DNA of 64,000 nt from Candidatus Methylacidiphilales bacterium (GCA_028713655.1 JAQTNW010000010.1:13908-77907); one strand, 5' to 3'. Shown: positions 7,314 through 61,768, counted from the first letter of the stretch. Notes: a model not told the origin generated them from the letters alone. Made by a program: numbers and translations.

Positions 7314-10300
7314 TCAAACCTCAATCCGCTGCCCGGTCGCGGTGCTGTACAAAATCCGGCGCGTCACACTGCGCCCCAGCCGCTTTTCCAGCATGTCCCC
7401 ATACGCCGACAACTGCGCCGCATAAATCGACTTCAACCTCGCCGCAAAATCCTTTTCCGTTTCGTCCGGCTTGCAGCGATTTGTTTTCCAATCCACCACC
7501 CCGCATTTTCCTTCTGCATCCACCACAATAAGGTCGATGACGCCTTCCATTATTGCCTCGGGCGACAGCGGGGCCGAAAACGGGATTTCGCTCAGGAAAA
7601 CCGATTCGGACCCCAGCAATTCCTTGTAAAACGGTCCGGCAAGAAACAATTCCATCTCCTTGAAACCTCTTTCCCGAAATCCAGCCGGCGCGAGCGCGCA
7701 TTTTTCGCGCAAATAATCCCCATGCCCGCCCTGAGACGACTTCCACGGGAACTGTTCCATAACTTCATGCCACCAGGTGCCATACTCCATTCCGCCCACA
7801 ACTGTCTCCATCCCGGCCTCAACGCGGAACTCATTCCCGTCCCCGTGAGCCGCCAGTTTATGGGGAAGCACCATCCTGACAATCTGTTTGGCGGAATCAA
7901 CGGCCTTCCGGATCAAATCCGCATCAAGCGCCGGCTCCACGCCGCGCTCCGTGCCGATCCCGGCTTCAGGCATAAAATCCGTCTCCCCAATCGAGTCTTT
8001 CCAATCCACTTCCTCCCTGCGGATCAAACCCAAAAAACTGGGGGTGCTGCGTTTGTAAAAGCCCTGGCTGTCCGGCAGTACCAGCAATCGCCGCGCCCGC
8101 GTCATCATGACATAAAACAAGCGCTGGAATTCCAGGTCGCGCGCTTCCTGTCTTCGGGTTTTGTTCTCCTCAGTCATCGTCAGCGGATTAAAATGCGCCT
8201 GCAGTCGCCCCTCTAACTTTTCAATCAACGGATACTCGGTTCTGTGCTGTCCGATCATTCTTCCCAAACCGGGCGCCACCACCACCGGCCATTCGAGCCC
8301 CTTTGCCTTCATCGAAGTCAGCAACTGGATTTCAGCCGACCCGCCCGTGGCAATCCGCGGCGATTTGCCCAGCTCATTTTTCAATCCATCAACCCAATCC
8401 AAAAAATCGACCCCTTCAGCTTCCGCAATCAACGCGGCGCGGCGCAATTCCTGCAACGGCTCCGCTTCCTCGCCAATGGCCAGAATCCTTTTCTCCAACG
8501 CCATCCGTTCCAGCAGCAGCTCAATAAAACGGCTCAACCGAAATATGCCGTCAGCTTGTTGCTTAAGCCATTCTCCTCGCAGCTCTCGAAGCTCCGCAAG
8601 CGCCTTCGCGGTCCGCTCAAAACACATGGCCGCCGAATTCAAATTCAATCCTTCCGGGCGCTCCTGATGCACCCGCAGCAATTCGTCATCCGCAATTCCG
8701 TAAATTTCCCGCAAAACACCTATCAACTCGAAGCGGTCAGACGGGTGCAGCAAAACCCATAACAAGGCCACGGGCCAACTGTAACCCGGCAATTCGGAGC
8801 GCTGCTCCTTGGATGAAACCATCCGGACCGGCAGCCCGGCGGTTTTGAGTTCTGACGACATGACCGACAACCAGTCAATGCGGGGACAGAGCACGGCAGC
8901 CTCCGACCAACTTGAAATTCCAAGTCCCTTCAGTCCCTGCTCCGCCATCCACGCCGACACCTGCCTCGCCTCCTCGCGAAACAATTCTGCGACCTTGCCG
9001 TCCTCCGGCGCTTTCAAATTCAAGATACGAACCCCTCCTTCCGGCGCATCGGGTCGCGGCTCCAGTCTCCTAAAATGCACCAAAGGCTGGTCCAATCTTC
9101 CTGGAAAAACCGTGTTGACCGCGCGGATCACGGCCTGCGGGCATCTCATTGTCACGGAAAAATTCAGGACCTGCCCCCCCTTCCCGCTTTGAAAGGCACT
9201 GACAAACTTGTGATATTGGGCCAGGTCCGCCCGCTTGCTGTAGATGGTTTGCTGGTCGTCTCCCACAAAACAAAACGATCCGGGGCGGGGCGGAGCGGCC
9301 TCCGTCTTTGTCGGCCACTCATATAGCTCCGCCGCTCCCGGGCGCGTGAGTTCTGTGAGGATGGCGAACATGCTGGAATCGGTATCCTGGGCCTCGTCCA
9401 GAATCACGATAAAATCCCGCTCCCGCAACCGCTGCAGCACCTTTTTGTTATCGAGCAGTTTTTTCGCCCATGCCACCATGTCGTCGTAGGTCAGATAGCC
9501 CTGGGCAACCCGGTAATCGCGATAACACAACGCCACCAGGGCCGCGAGATGGGAGGCGCAGGTGTTCAGCCAACTGACATACGGCTGGAACCCATTCCGA
9601 ACGGCTTCAGCAAACTCCTTCCCGCCCTGCTCATAATGCGGCAGTTCGAGATAACCGTCATCCGACTCATAATCTTTCAGCCATTGCCGGAGATGTTCCT
9701 GGTGCCGGGCCAGCGTCTCGACGGCTTTGCCGCGCGTCTTCGCTTCAAATGCGCCGCTTAAATCCAACACCGGGCCGGACCGGGCCGGCGCCCGCCCGGC
9801 GATTGCCTCAGCGGCATCCGGCGGCATTTCCCTGGCGAGCTTGAGGATTTGCTCAAAGGTATAATGCCGCAACACACGGGCCGGAATTTCCGGGTCCACC
9901 GTTTCCGGCCAGGCATAATCCGTTTCCACAAAGCGGTACCAAAGCCGCTCATCGTCTTCCTCCAGCAATTGAACGCTGGACGGCAGACCCAAATGCCTGC
10001 CTTCCTCCCGCAACAGCCTCAAACAAAAACTGTGGATGGTGCCGAAATAAGCCCGGTTGAATTCCCCCAGCACCTGTTGCCGCCGGCCGGCATCGCCTGA
10101 CAAATGACGGAACATCTCCTGGCGCGTCCGCACCCGCAGCTCTTCCGCCGCCAGCACACCATACGTCACCACGGCCAGGCGCGGCAGGCAACTGGGTTCG
10201 CCGCGGAGAATCCGAGCTTCCTCCCGGCAGGCCAGCGCGACGATTCTTTGGACGATCGCCGTGGTCTTGCCCGCGCCCGCGCTGGCGGAAACGCAAAAGT

Positions 10301-27172: not shown

Positions 27173-28003
27173 ATGTCAAAGTTGGGAAAACTATTTTGTG
27201 TCATAGCGGTCATTGCTTCGCTCGCTTCAGCTGCACTTGGGTTTCTTTTGGCCACTAAAAAGTCCGGCTACGCCAAACAGTTAGGGGCTGTGGAAGATCA
27301 GCTTCGAAAAACTCCCAACGTCAGCTACCAGTCTGATTTCAAGAATAATCCGGACGAGCCCGCTGCAACGGTTCAAAAAGCCGCCGGTATTCTCAAAAAA
27401 ACCAAGGATGATTTGGACGCCACACAGGCTAAATTGACGGAATCCACAGGCCAACTCTCCGAATCCCAGTCGCAAGTCCAAAAGTTGACCACGGAAGTGA
27501 CCTCGACCAAAAAGGATTTGGAGTCCAAAACCACCCAGCTTACCGAAACCACCACGAATCTCCAGGCTGCCCAAACCGAGTTGAAGGATTTTAAAGACCA
27601 ATTGGGCGGACGCAAATTATCCGATATCCTGGATGAATTGAAGAAAACGACGGAAGATTCCAAAGTTCTCAGTGCTGAGAAAAAAATCATCGAAGACAGC
27701 CTCGCCAAGAGTACTGCCGAGTTGAAAAAATACCAGGAACTGGAACAATTGGCCAAAAACCACGCCGCGCCCATGGATTTGAGCGGCAAGGTGGTCGCCA
27801 TCAACAAATCCTGGAACTTTGTCGTGCTGGATCTGGGCAAGGACAACAAGCTGAATGAAGGCATCGATCTGGCTGTTTATCGCGGCGACCAGTTGATCGG
27901 GAAAGTCAGGACCGTCTCCGTGGATGCCACCACCGCCATAGCCGATATCCTTCCTGACTGGACCAAAACCGAAATCCAGGTGGGCGACAAAGTACTTTAT
28001 TGA
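27173..28003 (+). CDS. Membrane-anchored coiled-coil protein, unknown function
   Basis: The N-terminal anchor is LFCVIAVIASLASAALGFLLA. A long heptad-rich T/K/E/Q segment follows, and the C-terminal part looks like a beta-rich domain (GKVVAINKSWNFVVLDLG...VGDKVLY). Confidence 0.5.
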   Translation: MSKLGKLFCVIAVIASLASAALGFLLATKKSGYAKQLGAVEDQLRKTPNVSYQSDFKNNPDEPAATVQKAAGILKKTKDDLDATQAKLTESTGQLSESQSQVQKLTTEVTSTKKDLESKTTQLTETTTNLQAAQTELKDFKDQLGGRKLSDILDELKKTTEDSKVLSAEKKIIEDSLAKSTAELKKYQELEQLAKNHAAPMDLSGKVVAINKSWNFVVLDLGKDNKLNEGIDLAVYRGDQLIGKVRTVSVDATTAIADILPDWTKTEIQVGDKVLY

Positions 28004-51935: not shown

Positions 51936-52028
51936 GGAATGCCATTTCGCAGCAGACGCCGAGCGCCCATGTTTTCGATCCACACAGATTTGAGTGGCCA
52001 AATTTTTGGAATTCGTATAGTGGTAACC

Positions 52029-52379
52029 ATGATGAAAAGCACCTTTTACTACTGCCGCTGGATCCCCGTTGCCCTGTCCTTGGTCGCGCTCGGCTGCGCC
52101 AGCAACAAAAATGACGCCACCGAAGTCCCGTTGCCGACTCCCTCCCAATCGGAAGCTCCCGCTGCCAACACCACTTCCGCGCCCGCCGCAACGCCCGCAA
52201 GCACCGCATCCACGGCGTCTGCCACACCCACCGCATCGGGCAAGACTTATACGGTCAAGTCGGGGGATTCGCTCTGGAAGATCGCCCACAAGAACCATGT
52301 GCATGTCGAGGACATCAAGAAATTGAATAACTTGACTTCCGATGCCCTCAAGCCGGGCCAGGTTTTGCAGATGCCCTGA
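52029..52379 (+). CDS. LysM-domain lipoprotein
   Basis: I set the start at MMKSTFYYCRWIPVALSLVALGC, which ends in a lipobox. An Ala/Thr/Pro linker leads to the C-terminal LysM domain YTVKSGDSLWKIAHKN...LKPGQVLQMP. Confidence 0.65.
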   Translation: MMKSTFYYCRWIPVALSLVALGCASNKNDATEVPLPTPSQSEAPAANTTSAPAATPASTASTASATPTASGKTYTVKSGDSLWKIAHKNHVHVEDIKKLNNLTSDALKPGQVLQMP

Positions 52380-52454: not shown

Positions 52455-52913
52455 ATGTCGTGGCGTAAGGTTTCATCTTGCATGTGCCTTGGAATGGCCG
52501 CGGCATGGCTGGCTTCCTGCGCCGGTAATTCACGCAACGTCAGCGAGGTGCCGCCCCCCGCATCGTCGGGAAACTCTCCGGCCGCCACGGAAAATCCCCT
52601 CGACCGCCCTCCACCGGAAGGCCCGCCGCCCTCCGGCGTCGCCGCCTCAAACTCGCGTCCTGTAATTTATGACTATCCGGGGCCGACACAAAAAATTGAA
52701 CCCCAGAAGCCTCATGCGGCGGCGGCGATCTCTACAGCCCCGGCCCCCGCTTCCGAAGCACCTGTGACATCCGGAAAAACCTATGCCGTGCAGACCGGTG
52801 ATACGCTGTGGAAAATCTCTAACAAGAACGGCGTGACTGTACAGGCCCTGAAACAAGCCAATGGCTTGACAAGCGATACGATCAAGCCTGGCCAGGTGCT
52901 GCAGATCCCGTAA
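52455..52913 (+). CDS. LysM-domain lipoprotein (paralog of the preceding gene)
   Basis: The lipobox is AAWLASC. A Pro-rich linker leads to the LysM domain YAVQTGDTLWKISNKN...IKPGQVLQIP. Confidence 0.65.
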   Translation: MSWRKVSSCMCLGMAAAWLASCAGNSRNVSEVPPPASSGNSPAATENPLDRPPPEGPPPSGVAASNSRPVIYDYPGPTQKIEPQKPHAAAAISTAPAPASEAPVTSGKTYAVQTGDTLWKISNKNGVTVQALKQANGLTSDTIKPGQVLQIP

Positions 52914-54101: not shown

Positions 54102-55739
54102 TCAAAAGTGATACATGCTTTTGAGAATTGCATGGATTAACTCTGTGATTCTACCGGCCAATGTCCCCCATTCCTGGGCATTGGAGGGTGCAAGTCCAAA
54201 TAAGGCCGGGAATGGAAACAGTAGGCAGGCAAAACTAAAACCTATCGTGGACAAAAATGAGGCGTCTGTCCTTGGCCAGGTGGTTTGAGCTCTGATCAAC
54301 CTGATCGTCTCCATCAAATCTTTTCGCTCTTGATGCTGTTCATCCTTGAGCTTCCTCAAATTGCCCTCCAAAGATTTGACCTCTTCGGTTTGCAAGGAAA
54401 CAAGTTGCCTGCGGAAGACGAGGGCGGGTCCGGCCAGCAAAAACAGCAGCGCCAACCCCACGGCAGCAAGGCCCAGAATTTGCAAAATCGGCATCAAATG
54501 AAAAACCTGGCTTTCAGTGCGGGCATCCAGGGTGTTATAGCCCTGCAAAAAGAGAAAAGAAGCGCCAATCGAAATGGCCAGCGCGATCAAATTATAAACA
54601 CGGAAGACCGGGTCCATCCCGAACCGTTTTTCCGTATCACGCAACCATGGGTTAAGGGCAAACGCCGAAGTCCCCCGGTGAGGCAGCAGATTGAACATCA
54701 ACAAAACATAAAAGATGATTTTGATGGCAGCCCATCCGCAAAAACCATGGAAAAGGCCTTCCATAACCAGGGCGCTGATCAGGAATGCGCGATAGAATAG
54801 GAAATCACACCTGTCAAATTTCTCCCTTCCTCCATTTGCAGATGCTTTCAAAAGCAGCCTCTTTTCACCAGCGGATTGCGGGATATCCACCCCAACAACA
54901 AGAGGATCCAGTCCAGGGCCTCTTGTTAGCAGATGCGAAGCGACCAACGGTTTTGTATCCAATGAGCCATACTTGGCCTCAAAAGCCACCTGGGAAGCCA
55001 AAGCCGCAGACAGCCGTGGGGTGTAGAATTTATCCTCAATCAGCCGGGCTCTGCCAGTTTCCCCATCGGGATTTTGGTTATAATCCTGGACCCATTGATA
55101 GAGGCAGGGAGTCTGCACATATCCGATATAACTCCATGGATGCTTGGAAAGGTCCCCCGACTCGAGTTTATCCATGGATCCATATTCCTTGTGGAAATTA
55201 AGTCCCAGCGTCACAAGCATCAAAAGCGCCAGGATCGGCAGTGAACACCTGTTCAGTTTTTGTATAAACCGCTGGACGGAACCAGCCAAACCCTCCTCAA
55301 TCATGCCGGTTCGGATCATTTCATGGGTGGAAATGCCTATATGACGGCAAAACTGGAATGTCACCCAAATGAACACCGGGGCAATAAACAAATAAAAAAG
55401 ACCGTGATTCAGTTCCCCCAGGTATCCATAGACGTGCTCGGCGCTGGCGCTCAAAACAGGAGTATTCGTTCCTTCAACAGGCGGAAAAAACGTTGCCGTT
55501 ATTTTCAATACCAGCAAATCGGTCCGAGCCCAATGCGCAAGAAGCAGGACAAGGATGCAAAAGACAAGGGAAATGCCTGACAGAATCCACTGCAAGACGG
55601 ACGCGGAGGAAATGGCAATTTTAGAGGCCCAAGGCCGGAACTCTTCCAGAAACAGCCAGTCTGCAGATGATTCCTGCCCCGATTCCATAATGACGTTCCG
55701 TGCTTTGTAGCTGGACTGGAATTTCAACCCTATTCCCAC
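54102..55739 (-). CDS. Hypothetical polytopic membrane protein (about 9 TM, hydrophilic loop, coiled-coil segment)
   Basis: The 545-aa ORF begins 6 nt downstream of the stop of the preceding gene. It has multiple long hydrophobic segments and the heptad-like stretch EEVKSLEGNLRKLKDEQHQERKDLMETIRLIRAQ. I recognise no family. Confidence 0.55.
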   Translation of the reverse strand: MGIGLKFQSSYKARNVIMESGQESSADWLFLEEFRPWASKIAISSASVLQWILSGISLVFCILVLLLAHWARTDLLVLKITATFFPPVEGTNTPVLSASAEHVYGYLGELNHGLFYLFIAPVFIWVTFQFCRHIGISTHEMIRTGMIEEGLAGSVQRFIQKLNRCSLPILALLMLVTLGLNFHKEYGSMDKLESGDLSKHPWSYIGYVQTPCLYQWVQDYNQNPDGETGRARLIEDKFYTPRLSAALASQVAFEAKYGSLDTKPLVASHLLTRGPGLDPLVVGVDIPQSAGEKRLLLKASANGGREKFDRCDFLFYRAFLISALVMEGLFHGFCGWAAIKIIFYVLLMFNLLPHRGTSAFALNPWLRDTEKRFGMDPVFRVYNLIALAISIGASFLFLQGYNTLDARTESQVFHLMPILQILGLAAVGLALLFLLAGPALVFRRQLVSLQTEEVKSLEGNLRKLKDEQHQERKDLMETIRLIRAQTTWPRTDASFLSTIGFSFACLLFPFPALFGLAPSNAQEWGTLAGRITELIHAILKSMYHF

Positions 55740-55745
55740 TCAAAA

Positions 55746-56135
55746 TTATCGCGCCCGGGCTTTGGCGGTCCTGCCCTGGATATTCGCCTCATTTTTCTTT
55801 ACCTCCTTGACCATGGAAAAATATGTCAGGACAGAATTCCACAAGCCGGAACCCCCGCTCGCGAGGAGGCCCAGGGCGAGTACGCCTGCATAGGGGTTGA
55901 TCGAATCCAGTCCCTTGACTGTGTTGATTGCGGGCCAAGCAAGCCACGATGTCAGAACACCGCCCAGCATGGCCATGAATTGCAACATGGCCTTCCGTCT
56001 TCCTTCCAGAACCGGGTTTACATTTTGAGTGTTCAAGAACGGACTCAGACCCTTGAGGATCTCCACCAAACGCTCCGATGCAACGCTCAAAGCAAGAATC
56101 AACGCCACCAACGAACTTAATTGATCAATTCCCAT
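55746..56135 (-). CDS. Hypothetical small membrane protein (3 hydrophobic helices, basic tail)
   Basis: I moved the start to the ATG at 56135 (MGIDQLSS...) because GGAAGGAG lies 6 nt upstream of it. The hydrophobic helices include LSSLVALILALSV, AMLGGVLTSWLAWPAI and AGVLALGLLASGGSGLW. Confidence 0.5.
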   Translation of the reverse strand: MGIDQLSSLVALILALSVASERLVEILKGLSPFLNTQNVNPVLEGRRKAMLQFMAMLGGVLTSWLAWPAINTVKGLDSINPYAGVLALGLLASGGSGLWNSVLTYFSMVKEVKKNEANIQGRTAKARAR

Positions 56136-56307
56136 GATTACTCCTTCCCTTGTAATATAATAATATCCCAACGATGACACAGCCTGTGTCTGAAAACTTC
56201 AATTCACCGCATCCGAGCAAGAATGGGTCAGGGGTCATATCTTGATAAACGATAGAAGCTTAAGTTTTTTGTCGGAAAATGACTGTTGCCCCGTTTTCCC
56301 GGCCCAA

Positions 56308-56649
56308 CTAAACAAGCGTGCCTTTGGCTAGCTGAATCAACTGGTCCAGCACTCCGAGCGCGGAGATGATGTTGTTTGCAAGGTTTACTTCATTTTCAAT
56401 ATCTTTCCGCACTTTATCGAGTGTTGTGGTGGAAGCCTTGATGTTCTTAACGCTGTTGGCGGCCACTTGTGCCCAATCCACTAATTCTATGATGCGCAGG
56501 CGACTGATTTGATTGTCTAATTCCTCGCTGTCGTCCTGGAATTTGTCTGCATCCTCGAGTCTTCCACTGTGGCGGCACACGCGCATGAGATGGTCCGCCA
56601 TTTCGCTTGCGTTCGTCAGGGCGATAAGAGTGTCCATGCGGTTGCTCAT
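56308..56649 (-). CDS. Hypothetical small acidic helical protein
   Basis: The 113-aa product has no TM segment. AAGGAA lies 9 nt upstream of the ATG, and the gene starts 24 nt after the lipoprotein gene. I recognise no family. Confidence 0.45.
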   Translation of the reverse strand: MSNRMDTLIALTNASEMADHLMRVCRHSGRLEDADKFQDDSEELDNQISRLRIIELVDWAQVAANSVKNIKASTTTLDKVRKDIENEVNLANNIISALGVLDQLIQLAKGTLV

Positions 56650-56673
56650 AGTTCAAGTTCCTTGAGGTGAAGG

Positions 56674-57753
56674 TTAGTTTGAGTTCTTGTTCGCCTTTTC
56701 GTTGGCGTCGTTCAGGTCTTTGTAGAGCTTGTAAAGCTTGGCCCCTGTGTCAGCCATACTGGCTATGGCGGAGAGGCCTGCGCTACCCTCAGCCGCCCTG
56801 GCCAGTTCGGAGTGCGATTCGGGCAGTGATGCGTATAACTTGGCCATTCCCCCAAATAGAGCCCACCGCTTGATGGTTGAATCGTTGAGCGTCACAGCGT
56901 TTGCCACCACCTTCTTGCGTTCGTCCGGCGCTGCAGAACCGAAATCCTTCTCTAGTTGCTTGAACTTGGCCACATAGGCATCACGCACATATCCTGACAG
57001 GTTGTAAGTCAGTTCAAGACCAAGATTCGAATATTCCTCGATAGCATTCTGATTGGTTTGGATGGCTTTGCGGAGAGCAGCACTTTGCTGGGATTTGATA
57101 TATTCACGGAAAGCTCCTGTTGCTGCGGTGGAAAAGATGGCTGCCTCCTGGCCTGATCCGACCTTGAGATGCTGGGTGGCATTATTCAGGTTCTTGTTTA
57201 AATTTCCGGCCATTTTTGAGAAATCGTCATCGCTGATGAATTCCTTGCCCGCCAGGGCCGCCAAGGCCTGGGTGTATTTCAGATAGGCGCCGTTGAAGTC
57301 ACTGATGCCTTCGGCCATCCGTTGTGGCACATAGTAATTGTTCATCCACTTCGATGCTTCGGAAGGTGCCTGTGTGCTGTCGCCCGGTTGTCTGGCACGG
57401 GCTACTTCCGCTGTACCCTTTTCAATGTCTGCGTCATTCTTCTCAAGGCCTGTGATATTCCAGGAGCCGTCTCCGGAATTGCCCCAGTAATATTGCTTCC
57501 CGTTGTTGCTCTCGAAATGCAGTTTGAGCCGATCAAAGTCATTCGGGCCGATGGAATTAATGAGGGCTTCGCGACTCTGGGCAATGGCCTCACTGAGGGC
57601 TTGGTCAGTGGCGGTGTCGACTGAGGCTGTGGCTGTCGAAAAGTCCTGGAACGGTTTTGGATTGGGGGCAGCACAACCAGCCAAAACCAACCCGCCCAAC
57701 AAGGCAGTCAGAGAAAATATTTTAAAGCCGCAATTATTGTATAACATCCTCAT
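56674..57753 (-). CDS. Hypothetical lipoprotein
   Basis: I moved the start to MRMLYNNCGFKIFSLTALLGGLVLAGC, which ends in a lipobox; GAGGA lies upstream. The product is N/K/Q/A-rich and probably helical. I recognise no family. Confidence 0.55.
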   Translation of the reverse strand: MRMLYNNCGFKIFSLTALLGGLVLAGCAAPNPKPFQDFSTATASVDTATDQALSEAIAQSREALINSIGPNDFDRLKLHFESNNGKQYYWGNSGDGSWNITGLEKNDADIEKGTAEVARARQPGDSTQAPSEASKWMNNYYVPQRMAEGISDFNGAYLKYTQALAALAGKEFISDDDFSKMAGNLNKNLNNATQHLKVGSGQEAAIFSTAATGAFREYIKSQQSAALRKAIQTNQNAIEEYSNLGLELTYNLSGYVRDAYVAKFKQLEKDFGSAAPDERKKVVANAVTLNDSTIKRWALFGGMAKLYASLPESHSELARAAEGSAGLSAIASMADTGAKLYKLYKDLNDANEKANKNSN

Positions 57754-58092
57754 GAATGAATTCCTCTGCGAGGACGCTATATAATACCAACTTCTTGTCA
57801 AAGCAAATTGCTAATAATAATGAATCTTAAAGTAACCTAACATAGTTAATGTTCAATATATTACAGCGCTTTGGCACCATCGGCTGCATGTCTCGGCCAC
57901 TTTGAAAAATCAGCTCGCCTACCTCTTGTACAAGGGTCAAGGGTGAGAGGACAAGCACGGAAAGTATGCTGGCTATAGCAGAATAACAGGGGAAAGACCC
58001 CCTATCTATCGATATGTCGCAGAACTGTTACAAAGCCGACACCAAAAAGTCACAGTTAGATGTACAAGCTAAACCTGTAAAAAGTCACCCCT

Positions 58093-61147: not shown

Positions 61148-61768
61148 TTACTTTTGCTTTTTGTATGAAAGTGTCTCGTCGTTATCAGGGTCACCAATGG
61201 TGAAGTTCAATAAATATTCTGACCACCACTTTTGAAGGCTTAAGCCTCCGTAGCCGCCATGCTTTATGGTACCATCATTAATGTTGCAACTGAGGCTATA
61301 GCCCGGAAAAGATTTTTTAATCTCCCAAGTCCCGGAACCTGAAAGAAATCCATTGTTGGATTCACCTGTTCCATTAAAGACGCAATCTGGAACATTTTTT
61401 AATTCGATGAGACGTGAGGGGTAGATGATAATTTCTGATTCAGGAATGCGGGAGTATTTTCTTTGCCTTAACGACAATTCGGATGTTTTGCATAAAACAT
61501 ATTTGCCTGTGATGTCTTCGGTTTCGGGTTTGTGTGAAAGGTATAAACCGTAGAAGTCCCAAAAAATATGGCCAATGCACAACAGCGCGAACGCTGCAAA
61601 AGGCAAAACAAGCATAAGCAGGCTTGCGGCTGGGAGGCCAGCCAACCATTTGAGCCAAGTCCATTTTTTAAACCAGCCCAGAATAAAAAAGCCGGTAAAA
61701 GTTAGAAGTATGAATAAGCAGGCCGCTGCTATGATCAGCCAAAATACAAAAACAAAACCAAGACCCAT
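61148..61768 (-). CDS. Hypothetical membrane protein (3 N-terminal TM helices + soluble C-terminal domain)
   Basis: The 206-aa gene is AT-rich: one 60-nt line counts 37 % G+C. Repeat clusters flank it. I recognise no family. Confidence 0.45.
   Translation of the reverse strand: MGLGFVFVFWLIIAAACLFILLTFTGFFILGWFKKWTWLKWLAGLPAASLLMLVLPFAAFALLCIGHIFWDFYGLYLSHKPETEDITGKYVLCKTSELSLRQRKYSRIPESEIIIYPSRLIELKNVPDCVFNGTGESNNGFLSGSGTWEIKKSFPGYSLSCNINDGTIKHGGYGGLSLQKWWSEYLLNFTIGDPDNDETLSYKKQK

Follow-up and report, generated by a model that had tools for sequence, protein, structure and literature searches.

In a 64,000-nt stretch of DNA from a Candidatus Methylacidiphilales bacterium (GCA_028713655.1 JAQTNW010000010.1:13908-77907), the whole of which is referred to below as the window, the minus strand carries a block of four genes, P1 to P4 (54102-57753), the last of which encodes a seven-transmembrane (7TM) protein that belongs to a real, very rare and previously undescribed family of membrane domains. 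The fold of this protein is predicted with confidence and, at the level of the model, is structurally unmatched, and relatives of P4 are fused to kinase, TIR and peptidase domains or encoded in defence islands. Our leading interpretation, which is held tentatively, is that the block represents an accessory cassette, acquired laterally and specific to its lineage, whose core, P4, is a new 7TM module of envelope-sensing or channel type.

The P4 protein (54102..55688, minus strand, 528 aa) has very few close relatives. A word-indexed search of 5.8 billion proteins returned, besides the query itself, a single homologue (P0002, 52% identity), to which a repeat of the search with the family alignment added P0004 (47% identity to P4). 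With a HMMER profile, 113 of 1.84 billion cluster representatives were recovered at E <= 1e-3, 68 of them at <= 1e-10 and 19 at <= 1e-30, most being 450-600 aa long. The named members all come from Verrucomicrobiota, namely this metagenome-assembled genome (MAG), Luteolibacter sp. Populi and a Chthoniobacter MAG, and when 185,579 species genomes were scanned with a pattern from a narrower alignment, a single locus was recovered. Phage, plasmid and viral-contig collections yielded no family member: tblastn searches of phages (with P3 and P4) and of plasmids (with P4) were negative, and so were four viral-contig scans. The 32 full-length members that were aligned define a series of motifs: LSEF at the N-terminus, GYLxExNHGxFYLxxAP, NR, GYVQxPxLxxW..FN, EGxFHxFxxWxxxKxxFW, PxxxDxxxRFGLxxLxxxYN, GP, a coiled segment and QxTWPxxDxxF. 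Residues P104, G189, Q192, D351, Y365, Q468, W471 and P472 are invariant in this alignment.

The AlphaFold2 model of P4, computed from an 81-sequence alignment, reaches a predicted local distance difference test score (pLDDT) of 93.2 and a predicted TM-score (pTM) of 0.92. It contains seven transmembrane (TM) helices (29-53, 93-126, 137-176, 293-334, 359-389, 401-446 and 476-499), in agreement with the hydropathy profile, together with a beta-hairpin (59-87), an alpha/beta region (177-292), a return helix (452-466), a kink at QTTWP and a C-terminal helix. The model of a distant member, P0089, which is only 21% identical to P4, is of similar quality (pLDDT 93.6) and displays the same seven-helix layout with a shorter ectodomain. 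Along the P4 sequence, residues 1-176 (55161..55688, minus strand) comprise the cytoplasmic N-terminus with LSEF, TM1, the external beta-hairpin, TM2 with the GYLxExNHGxFYLxxAP motif, and TM3; residues 177-292 (54813..55160, minus strand) make up the predicted periplasmic alpha/beta ectodomain, which carries GYVQxPxLxxW..FN with the invariant G189 and Q192; and residues 293-528 (54105..54812, minus strand) begin with a long TM4 bearing the conserved W319 and K323, the cytoplasmic loop PxxxDxxxRFG and TM5 (YN), and continue with a very long TM6 running on into a helical hairpin in the cytoplasm, the QxTWP kink, the last TM helix and the C-terminal helix. The ectodomain, of about 115 aa, is built on extracellular loops EL1 and EL2; EL2 measures about 116 aa in P4, as against some 63 aa in P0089, and in the models it forms one folded domain with the EL1 hairpin. 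As read from secondary structure only, TM4 spans 42-45 aa, TM5 29-31 aa and TM6 46-53 aa in the models, and the last helix is interrupted at QxTWP (452-466 / 476-499).

From these features we infer a topology in which the N-terminus is cytoplasmic, residues 177-292 and the EL1 hairpin are periplasmic, and the C-terminus lies outside. The N-terminus is placed in the cytoplasm because LSEF directly follows the cytoplasmic TIR or kinase domain in the fusion proteins described below; counting seven helices from there puts residues 177-292 in the periplasm and the C-terminus outside, the latter by helix parity only. The distribution of lysine and arginine agrees with this topology, since K+R density is 0.17-0.22 in the predicted inner loops IL2 and IL3 as compared to 0.05-0.09 in EL1, EL3 and the C-terminus. 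Foldseek searches with the P4 and P0089 models against 350,542 PDB chains and BFVD gave no significant match.

Through its fusions, this membrane domain is linked to signalling domains. In 15 of the 113 representatives, an extra N-terminal domain precedes a complete P4-like domain, not a fragment of one: a Ser/Thr kinase in nine cases (P0072, P0074, P0081, P0082, P0085, P0097, P0102 and P0109 among them), a kinase together with a TIR domain in two (P0084, P0098), a TIR domain alone in three (P0083, P0093, P0096) and a trypsin-like peptidase in one (P0077). When run on all 113 members, PADLOC matched only the enzyme parts (a PD-T4-6-type kinase and a ThsB-type TIR), and never the membrane domain.

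Genomic contexts, which were inspected at twelve loci besides the window, point in the same direction. At locus L005 (4201-14056), the gene for P0010 lies between the res (ResIII/REase_III) and mod (MTase_III, E = 4e-287) genes of a type III restriction-modification (R-M) system, in an insert made of the P4-family gene, a 111-aa gene and a 411-aa gene with TM and coiled-coil segments, and a DUF433/DUF5615 pair is fused or adjacent. P0005 (L003) is found with an integrase, a QatA/PifA-like KAP NTPase, SSB, DUF932 and an M78 peptidase, and P0039 (L011) with Mrr_N, HNH, a Zeta toxin and DUF5131. In the case of P0116 (L006-8), an exported DUF4403 protein is encoded directly upstream, and the surroundings include a BrnT/BrnA toxin-antitoxin pair and an IS21 remnant, while P0019 (L009) is preceded by an exported beta-barrel-like protein and followed by a DDE transposase. 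In the Chthoniobacter MAG (L012, 959-14592), a P4-like gene (25% identity to P4) is part of a co-directional series in which an FHA-sigma54 AAA+ activator, a caspase (C14) and a CHAP protein are followed, after the P4-like gene, by a Ser/Thr kinase with PG_binding_1, a small lipoprotein-like gene, an M15 peptidase with PG_binding_1 and a zinc-ribbon/Band 7 protein; this cluster looks like a programmed-cell-death or envelope-signalling module. Finally, P0123 (L021, 8171-13940) is a 1280-aa kinase-kinase-TIR-7TM fusion encoded directly downstream of an extracytoplasmic function (ECF) sigma factor gene (PF07638), and its stop codon lies in a 4-nt overlap with the gene for an exported 366-aa product.

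The two closest homologues of P4 are found in other surroundings. At L001, P0002 is preceded by a truncated helical open reading frame (ORF) and a 129-aa P2-like gene, and P3 is missing. At L002, P0004 has a different upstream gene, whose 684-aa product matched no Pfam or PADLOC model, and trypsin-like proteins, pYEATS and a P-loop ATPase are encoded nearby; a reading of the 684-aa protein as a GHKL ATPase, made by eye, was confirmed by neither Pfam nor PADLOC and was not used. L002 also encodes, on the minus strand (7798-9378), a 526-aa product that is an odd fusion: its N-terminus matches Ribosomal_L27A (uL15-like), and its C-terminus is similar to the trypsin-like (Nal1_C-type) protein encoded beside it. 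The gene adjoins a prokaryotic YEATS gene. An all-against-all BLAST of the neighbours at the first 11 loci detected no shared neighbour family. Nonetheless, genes for exported proteins or lipoproteins recur beside family members, as seen with P1 in the window, DUF4403 at L006, and the neighbours at L009, L010 and L021.

The P4 domain is large, includes a folded ectodomain and carries conserved motifs on the two membrane faces; it follows a kinase, TIR or peptidase domain, or adjoins kinase, caspase, R-M or toxin-antitoxin genes. The most economical reading of the family is that of a new membrane-embedded input (receptor) module for stress or conflict signalling across bacteria. According to this reading, P4 would sense a periplasmic or envelope cue, for instance envelope damage or contact with an invader, which the exported lipoprotein P1 may help to present to it, and would turn this cue into a response at the level of the membrane. 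For a stand-alone protein such as P4, the response could consist of an ion flux through the helix bundle, or else pass through its neighbours, P2 acting as a putative adaptor in the cytoplasm and P3, with its three TM segments, as a protein of the holin or immunity type.

Several observations weigh against such a role. Some 85% of the family members lack an output domain, and none of the partner genes is recurrent at the sequence level, so that a pure sensor reading leaves the output unexplained. The polar residues conserved within the membrane (K323, QxTWP and the NHG motif) would be compatible with a transporter or an enzyme as well. The set of contexts is small, with 11 loci, and mostly metagenomic, and it includes contexts that are not related to defence: in Luteolibacter (L004), the gene for P0017 is a lone gene between SulP and SecA, with IS110 nearby, and P0020 (L010) is preceded by three exported proteins. 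As for the window itself, the HRDxKxxN kinase motif is absent from all its frames, none of the PADLOC 2.0 system models matched P1-P4, and the flanks of the block contain no defence or mobility genes; a search for mobile-element boundaries around the block likewise revealed no tRNA genes, no integrase and no meaningful flanking repeats.

Comparison with characterised systems gives partial likenesses. ECF sigma factors encoded beside transmembrane Ser/Thr kinases are known envelope-stress sensor/sigma modules (PMC8999054), such as the PknT/EcfP and PknS/EcfK pairs, which involve Hanks-type kinases (PMC8999054, PMC13147305). In the P4 family, a kinase similarly precedes the 7TM domain in 11 representatives, and one gene of this kind, that of L021, follows an ECF gene; P4, however, has no kinase domain of its own and the window offers neither a kinase nor an ECF partner. 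With the membrane effectors of bacterial defence (SLATT; the 2TM/4TM effectors of CBASS, Pycsar and Thoeris), the family shares its ties to TIR domains and defence islands, as well as the existence of stand-alone membrane proteins that could depolarise the cell. In contrast to these effectors, the P4 domain is much larger (about 450-530 aa, 7 TM helices), has an ectodomain and is not linked to a nucleotide cyclase or SMODS gene, and no SLATT or other PADLOC effector model matches P4 or the 113 family members.

The best-placed alternative, which we regard as possible but rather unlikely, is that P4 would be a self-contained ligand- or stress-gated ion channel, i.e., an effector of abortive-infection type and a bacterial relative of the seven-transmembrane ion channel (7TMIC) fold, to which the ligand-gated cation channels of insect smell and taste (odorant and gustatory receptors) belong, with the kinase and TIR fusions acting as regulators and P3 as an antidote or helper. 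Most family members are indeed stand-alone, and often lone genes in defence islands, and the TM helices hold conserved charged and polar residues. Furthermore, insect odorant and gustatory receptor channels gave the only full-length PDB alignments in both Foldseek searches, with scores that are not significant (AgamOR28, E = 0.31; MhOR5, TM-scores 0.33/0.37; BmGr9, 0.32/0.36; Gr43a and Orco are also listed), the remaining matches being partial alignments of long helices with ABC exporters or TolC. Bacterial members of the 7TMIC superfamily (Bac7TMICs) exist, and genuine 7TMIC matches often receive poor Foldseek scores (Himmel, Moi and Benton 2023; 10.1101/2023.08.30.555482). The superfamily is defined by seven TM helices, a cytoplasmic N-terminus, extracellular loops that are shorter than the intracellular ones, long TM4-TM6, a split TM7 and a tetrameric cation channel (10.1101/2023.08.30.555482). 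Part of this layout is common to the P4 family, in that seven TM helices are present in both P4 and P0089 and the N-terminus is predicted to be cytoplasmic and the C-terminus external. To judge from secondary structure, the great length of TM4 and TM6 and the division of the last helix into a cytoplasmic and a membrane portion may plausibly correspond as well, TM5 being comparatively short. On the other side, 7TMICs have short loops whereas the P4 family has a large structured extracellular domain, the fold scores are not significant (E = 0.3-3.7, TM-scores 0.25-0.37) and no sequence-profile link was found. It is conceivable, if unlikely, that the two lines of thought meet, and that the P4 family is a divergent bacterial 7TMIC branch that gained a periplasmic ectodomain and was recruited to conflict or stress signalling, either fused to TIR or kinase domains or as a lone sensor-plus-channel that would depolarise the cell when the envelope is attacked.

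The accessory-cassette interpretation also concerns the three genes that accompany P4. The four co-directional ORFs follow each other in the order P1-P2-P3-P4 from 57753 to 54102, and encode a 359-aa predicted lipoprotein (P1, 56674..57753), a 113-aa acidic helical protein without TM segment (P2, 56308..56649), a 129-aa basic protein with three TM segments (P3, 55746..56135) and P4, all on the minus strand. The most likely start of P4 is M18, at 55688, rather than the alternative GTG at 55739 that would give a 545-aa product, because both the NCBI call (PHD76_05075) and the alignment with its homologue begin there; with this start, the P3-P4 gap becomes 57 nt, not 6. The intergenic gaps are thus 24 nt (P1-P2), 172 nt (P2-P3) and 57 nt (P3-P4). 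The 172-nt spacer (56136..56307, minus strand) holds a Shine-Dalgarno sequence, GGAAGGAG, at 56141-56148, 5 nt ahead of the P3 ATG; neither the spacer, at E <= 1, nor the block as a whole has a match in Rfam, and the minus strand of the block showed neither a consensus promoter nor a terminator between the genes.

These results largely agree with an earlier note that had been made on this DNA from the sequence alone, and which described four co-directional genes lying between a fatty-acid desaturase gene and an LpxH-like gene, a short sequence element ahead of P3, and the main features of P1 (lipobox), P2 (acidic, no TM segment) and P3 (three hydrophobic segments, basic tail). Of its gaps of 24, 172 and 6 nt, the first two were borne out and the third is superseded by the M18 start, as is the length of 545 aa that it had given for P4; the nine or so helices and the loop of about 140 aa that it attributed to this protein become seven TM helices and a loop of about 116 aa in the AlphaFold model. 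Its statement that no family can be recognised in any of the four proteins holds for every curated library tried: searches of P1-P4 against Pfam, PADLOC, NCBIfam and PHROGs gave no credible match, the best PADLOC score (P2 with Drt5, E = 0.0056, 14 bits) not being credible either, and searches against PDB sequences gave no significant match, with the single proteins and the family profile alike yielding only a designed coiled coil. The foreign composition that it had proposed proved real in both GC content and codon usage, and weaker than its hand counts implied. The block has a GC content of 50.2%, as compared to 55.9% for the rest of the window, which ranks it in the lowest 2% of segments of equal size, and the individual GC contents of P1-P4 are 1.3-1.8 standard deviations below the mean of the 42 ORFs of the window. 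Synonymous-codon likelihood scores correspond to z = -1.5 for P1, -1.3 for P2, -3.9 for P3 and -2.5 for P4, the codon usage of P3 being the most atypical in the window. The block is moderately foreign-looking, most clearly so for P3 and P4.

Two other ORFs of the window have a low GC content. One, a 206-aa orphan (61148-61768, minus strand), has the lowest GC content (41.7%) and, after P3, the lowest codon score in the window; its product has two hydrophobic helices at the N-terminus and is without a Pfam match, and the ORF, which lies about 3.4 kb from the block, may mark a second insertion of foreign DNA. The other (27173-28003, plus strand; GC 49%) encodes a 276-aa protein in which a signal-anchor is combined with a long coiled-coil region rich in S, T, K and E; it, too, has no Pfam match.

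Within the block, P1 is an orphan gene. Its product is helical and N/K/Q-rich, and its putative signal peptide closes in the lipobox LVLAGC with Cys27 (MRMLYNNCGFKIFSLTALLGGLVLAGC; read by eye from the sequence), in accordance with the L-[AS]-[GA]-C pattern of bacterial lipoproteins. The word-indexed search of 5.8 billion proteins returned only P1 itself; its weak collinear similarity to the truncated helical ORF found at the same position in L001 (z = 2.5) is not significant, as 4 of 100 shuffles reach the score. P2, with an isoelectric point (pI) of 4.9, is 25% identical to the 129-aa product of the gene at the matching position in L001 (pairwise E = 1e-3).

P3 is a member of an independent small family, with homologues at eight metagenome loci (43-51% identity) and the motifs ASERLVEIxKG and LGLLASGGSGLWNSVLTY, and it is not found at L001, the locus of the closest P4 homologue. 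According to hydropathy and sequence, P3 (pI 10.1) consists of three hydrophobic segments and a basic tail, KEVKKNEANIQGRTAKARAR, with a predicted N-out/C-in topology. At L013 (5129-8137), a 168-aa lipoprotein and a 112-aa helical protein, neither of which has detectable similarity to P1 or P2, are followed by a P3 homologue and then by a 548-aa PLDc_2 protein, while at L017 (5985-9639) a damaged P3 copy lies ahead of the gene for a Zn-dependent phospholipase-C-like protein, downstream of which a 507-aa lipoprotein is encoded; in L018 and L020, the P3 homologue is frameshifted. Neither the PLDc_2 nor the phospholipase-C-like partner has a signal peptide, and lipoprotein genes are found near both; a P3-family gene and a membrane-lipase gene may constitute a small-TM-protein/lipase module. 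In its size (about 130 aa), three TM segments, N-out/C-in orientation and highly basic cytoplasmic tail, P3 is reminiscent of class I holins and of immunity proteins to pore-forming colicins; it has the small size, number of TM helices (2-4) and charged C-terminal tail expected of holins, and its genes adjoin genes for membrane-active proteins. It differs from them in that it matches no Pfam holin model, its only hit being phrog_20258 (unknown function, E = 0.03), and in that no endolysin or colicin gene is found nearby, its partners being a 7TM, a phospholipase D (PLD)-like or a phospholipase C (PLC)-like protein.

The block is best described as a mosaic, in which P1-P2 go with P4 at one other locus and P3 occurs separately with other membrane-active partners. 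The four-gene unit as such is found nowhere else: the closest P4 homologue (L001) keeps only positional P1-like and P2-like genes, L002 has another upstream gene, and P3 is found elsewhere with other partners. This lack of co-conservation in part refutes the finding of the earlier note by a standard that the note itself had set, and an operon acting as a unit is not supported. As the four genes are not co-conserved, the envelope-spanning machine that was proposed there is not supported either. The membrane-acting defence module, its other proposal, receives indirect support for P4 from the fusions and the recurrent defence-island contexts, and none for P1-P3; a signalling sensor fits the fusion and context data of P4 at least as well.

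Taken further, the mosaic could simply consist of four unrelated orphan genes that have become neighbours by chance within a variable region, with any function being that of P4 alone. This is improbable in our view, even though it would account for the uniqueness of the four-gene unit, for the separate distribution and partners of P3, for the lack of a detectable P1 homologue, for the 172-nt spacer and separate ribosome-binding site ahead of P3, and for the unequal codon-usage scores of the genes. What it does not explain is that the genes, all on one strand, are separated by short gaps that hold no terminator-like site, that the order P1-like, P2-like, P4 recurs in L001 despite strong sequence divergence, and that at L013 a lipoprotein, a small helical protein and P3 follow one another in a comparable arrangement.

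The flanks of the block are of a housekeeping nature and encode a fatty-acid desaturase, an LpxH-like metallophosphoesterase, a polysaccharide deacetylase, an inositol monophosphatase and a P-type ATPase. Two tandem genes on the plus strand (51939-52379 and 52455-52913), situated immediately ahead of the desaturase gene, encode small proteins that each end in a LysM domain and whose hydrophobic, Cys-containing N-termini are lipoprotein-like. The location among lipid and envelope genes, the combination of a lipoprotein with inner-membrane proteins and the conserved periplasmic motif of P4 would all be compatible with a housekeeping complex for envelope biogenesis or transport, tied to the neighbouring lipid genes (desaturase, LpxH-like, deacetylase). 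Such a complex is nevertheless highly improbable given the extreme rarity of the P4 family (one locus in 185,579 species genomes, two close homologues in 5.8 billion proteins), its variable neighbours and the atypical composition of the block; moreover, the lipid genes flank no family member at any other locus examined.

Least probable of all is a remnant phage lysis or holin-dependent (type 10-like) secretion cassette, with P3 as holin and P1 and P2 as spanin-like proteins, for which the class I holin topology, basic tail and weak PHROG match (E = 0.03) of P3, the position of its homologues ahead of PLD-like or PLC-like genes without signal peptides, and the peptidoglycan hydrolases near the P4-like gene of L012 could be cited, but the block has no endolysin, none of P1-P4 has a phage or viral-contig match, P1 is far larger than an o-spanin, P2 lacks a TM segment and P3 fits no holin family model.

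At the level of the block, these data illustrate that what looks like an operon of four genes can be a mosaic whose parts move independently of one another. At the level of the family, P4 and its relatives are a worthwhile lead, being rare, confidently folded, unmatched and linked to immune-type and signalling domains, and they would add a structurally unmatched membrane input module to the parts used in bacterial stress and immune signalling; their fusions to TIR, kinase and peptidase domains and their insertion in defence islands make this role directly testable. If the resemblance to 7TMICs is real, the family would in addition provide a first biological and functional context for bacterial 7TMICs, and link channels of the chemoreceptor type to immune-type signalling.

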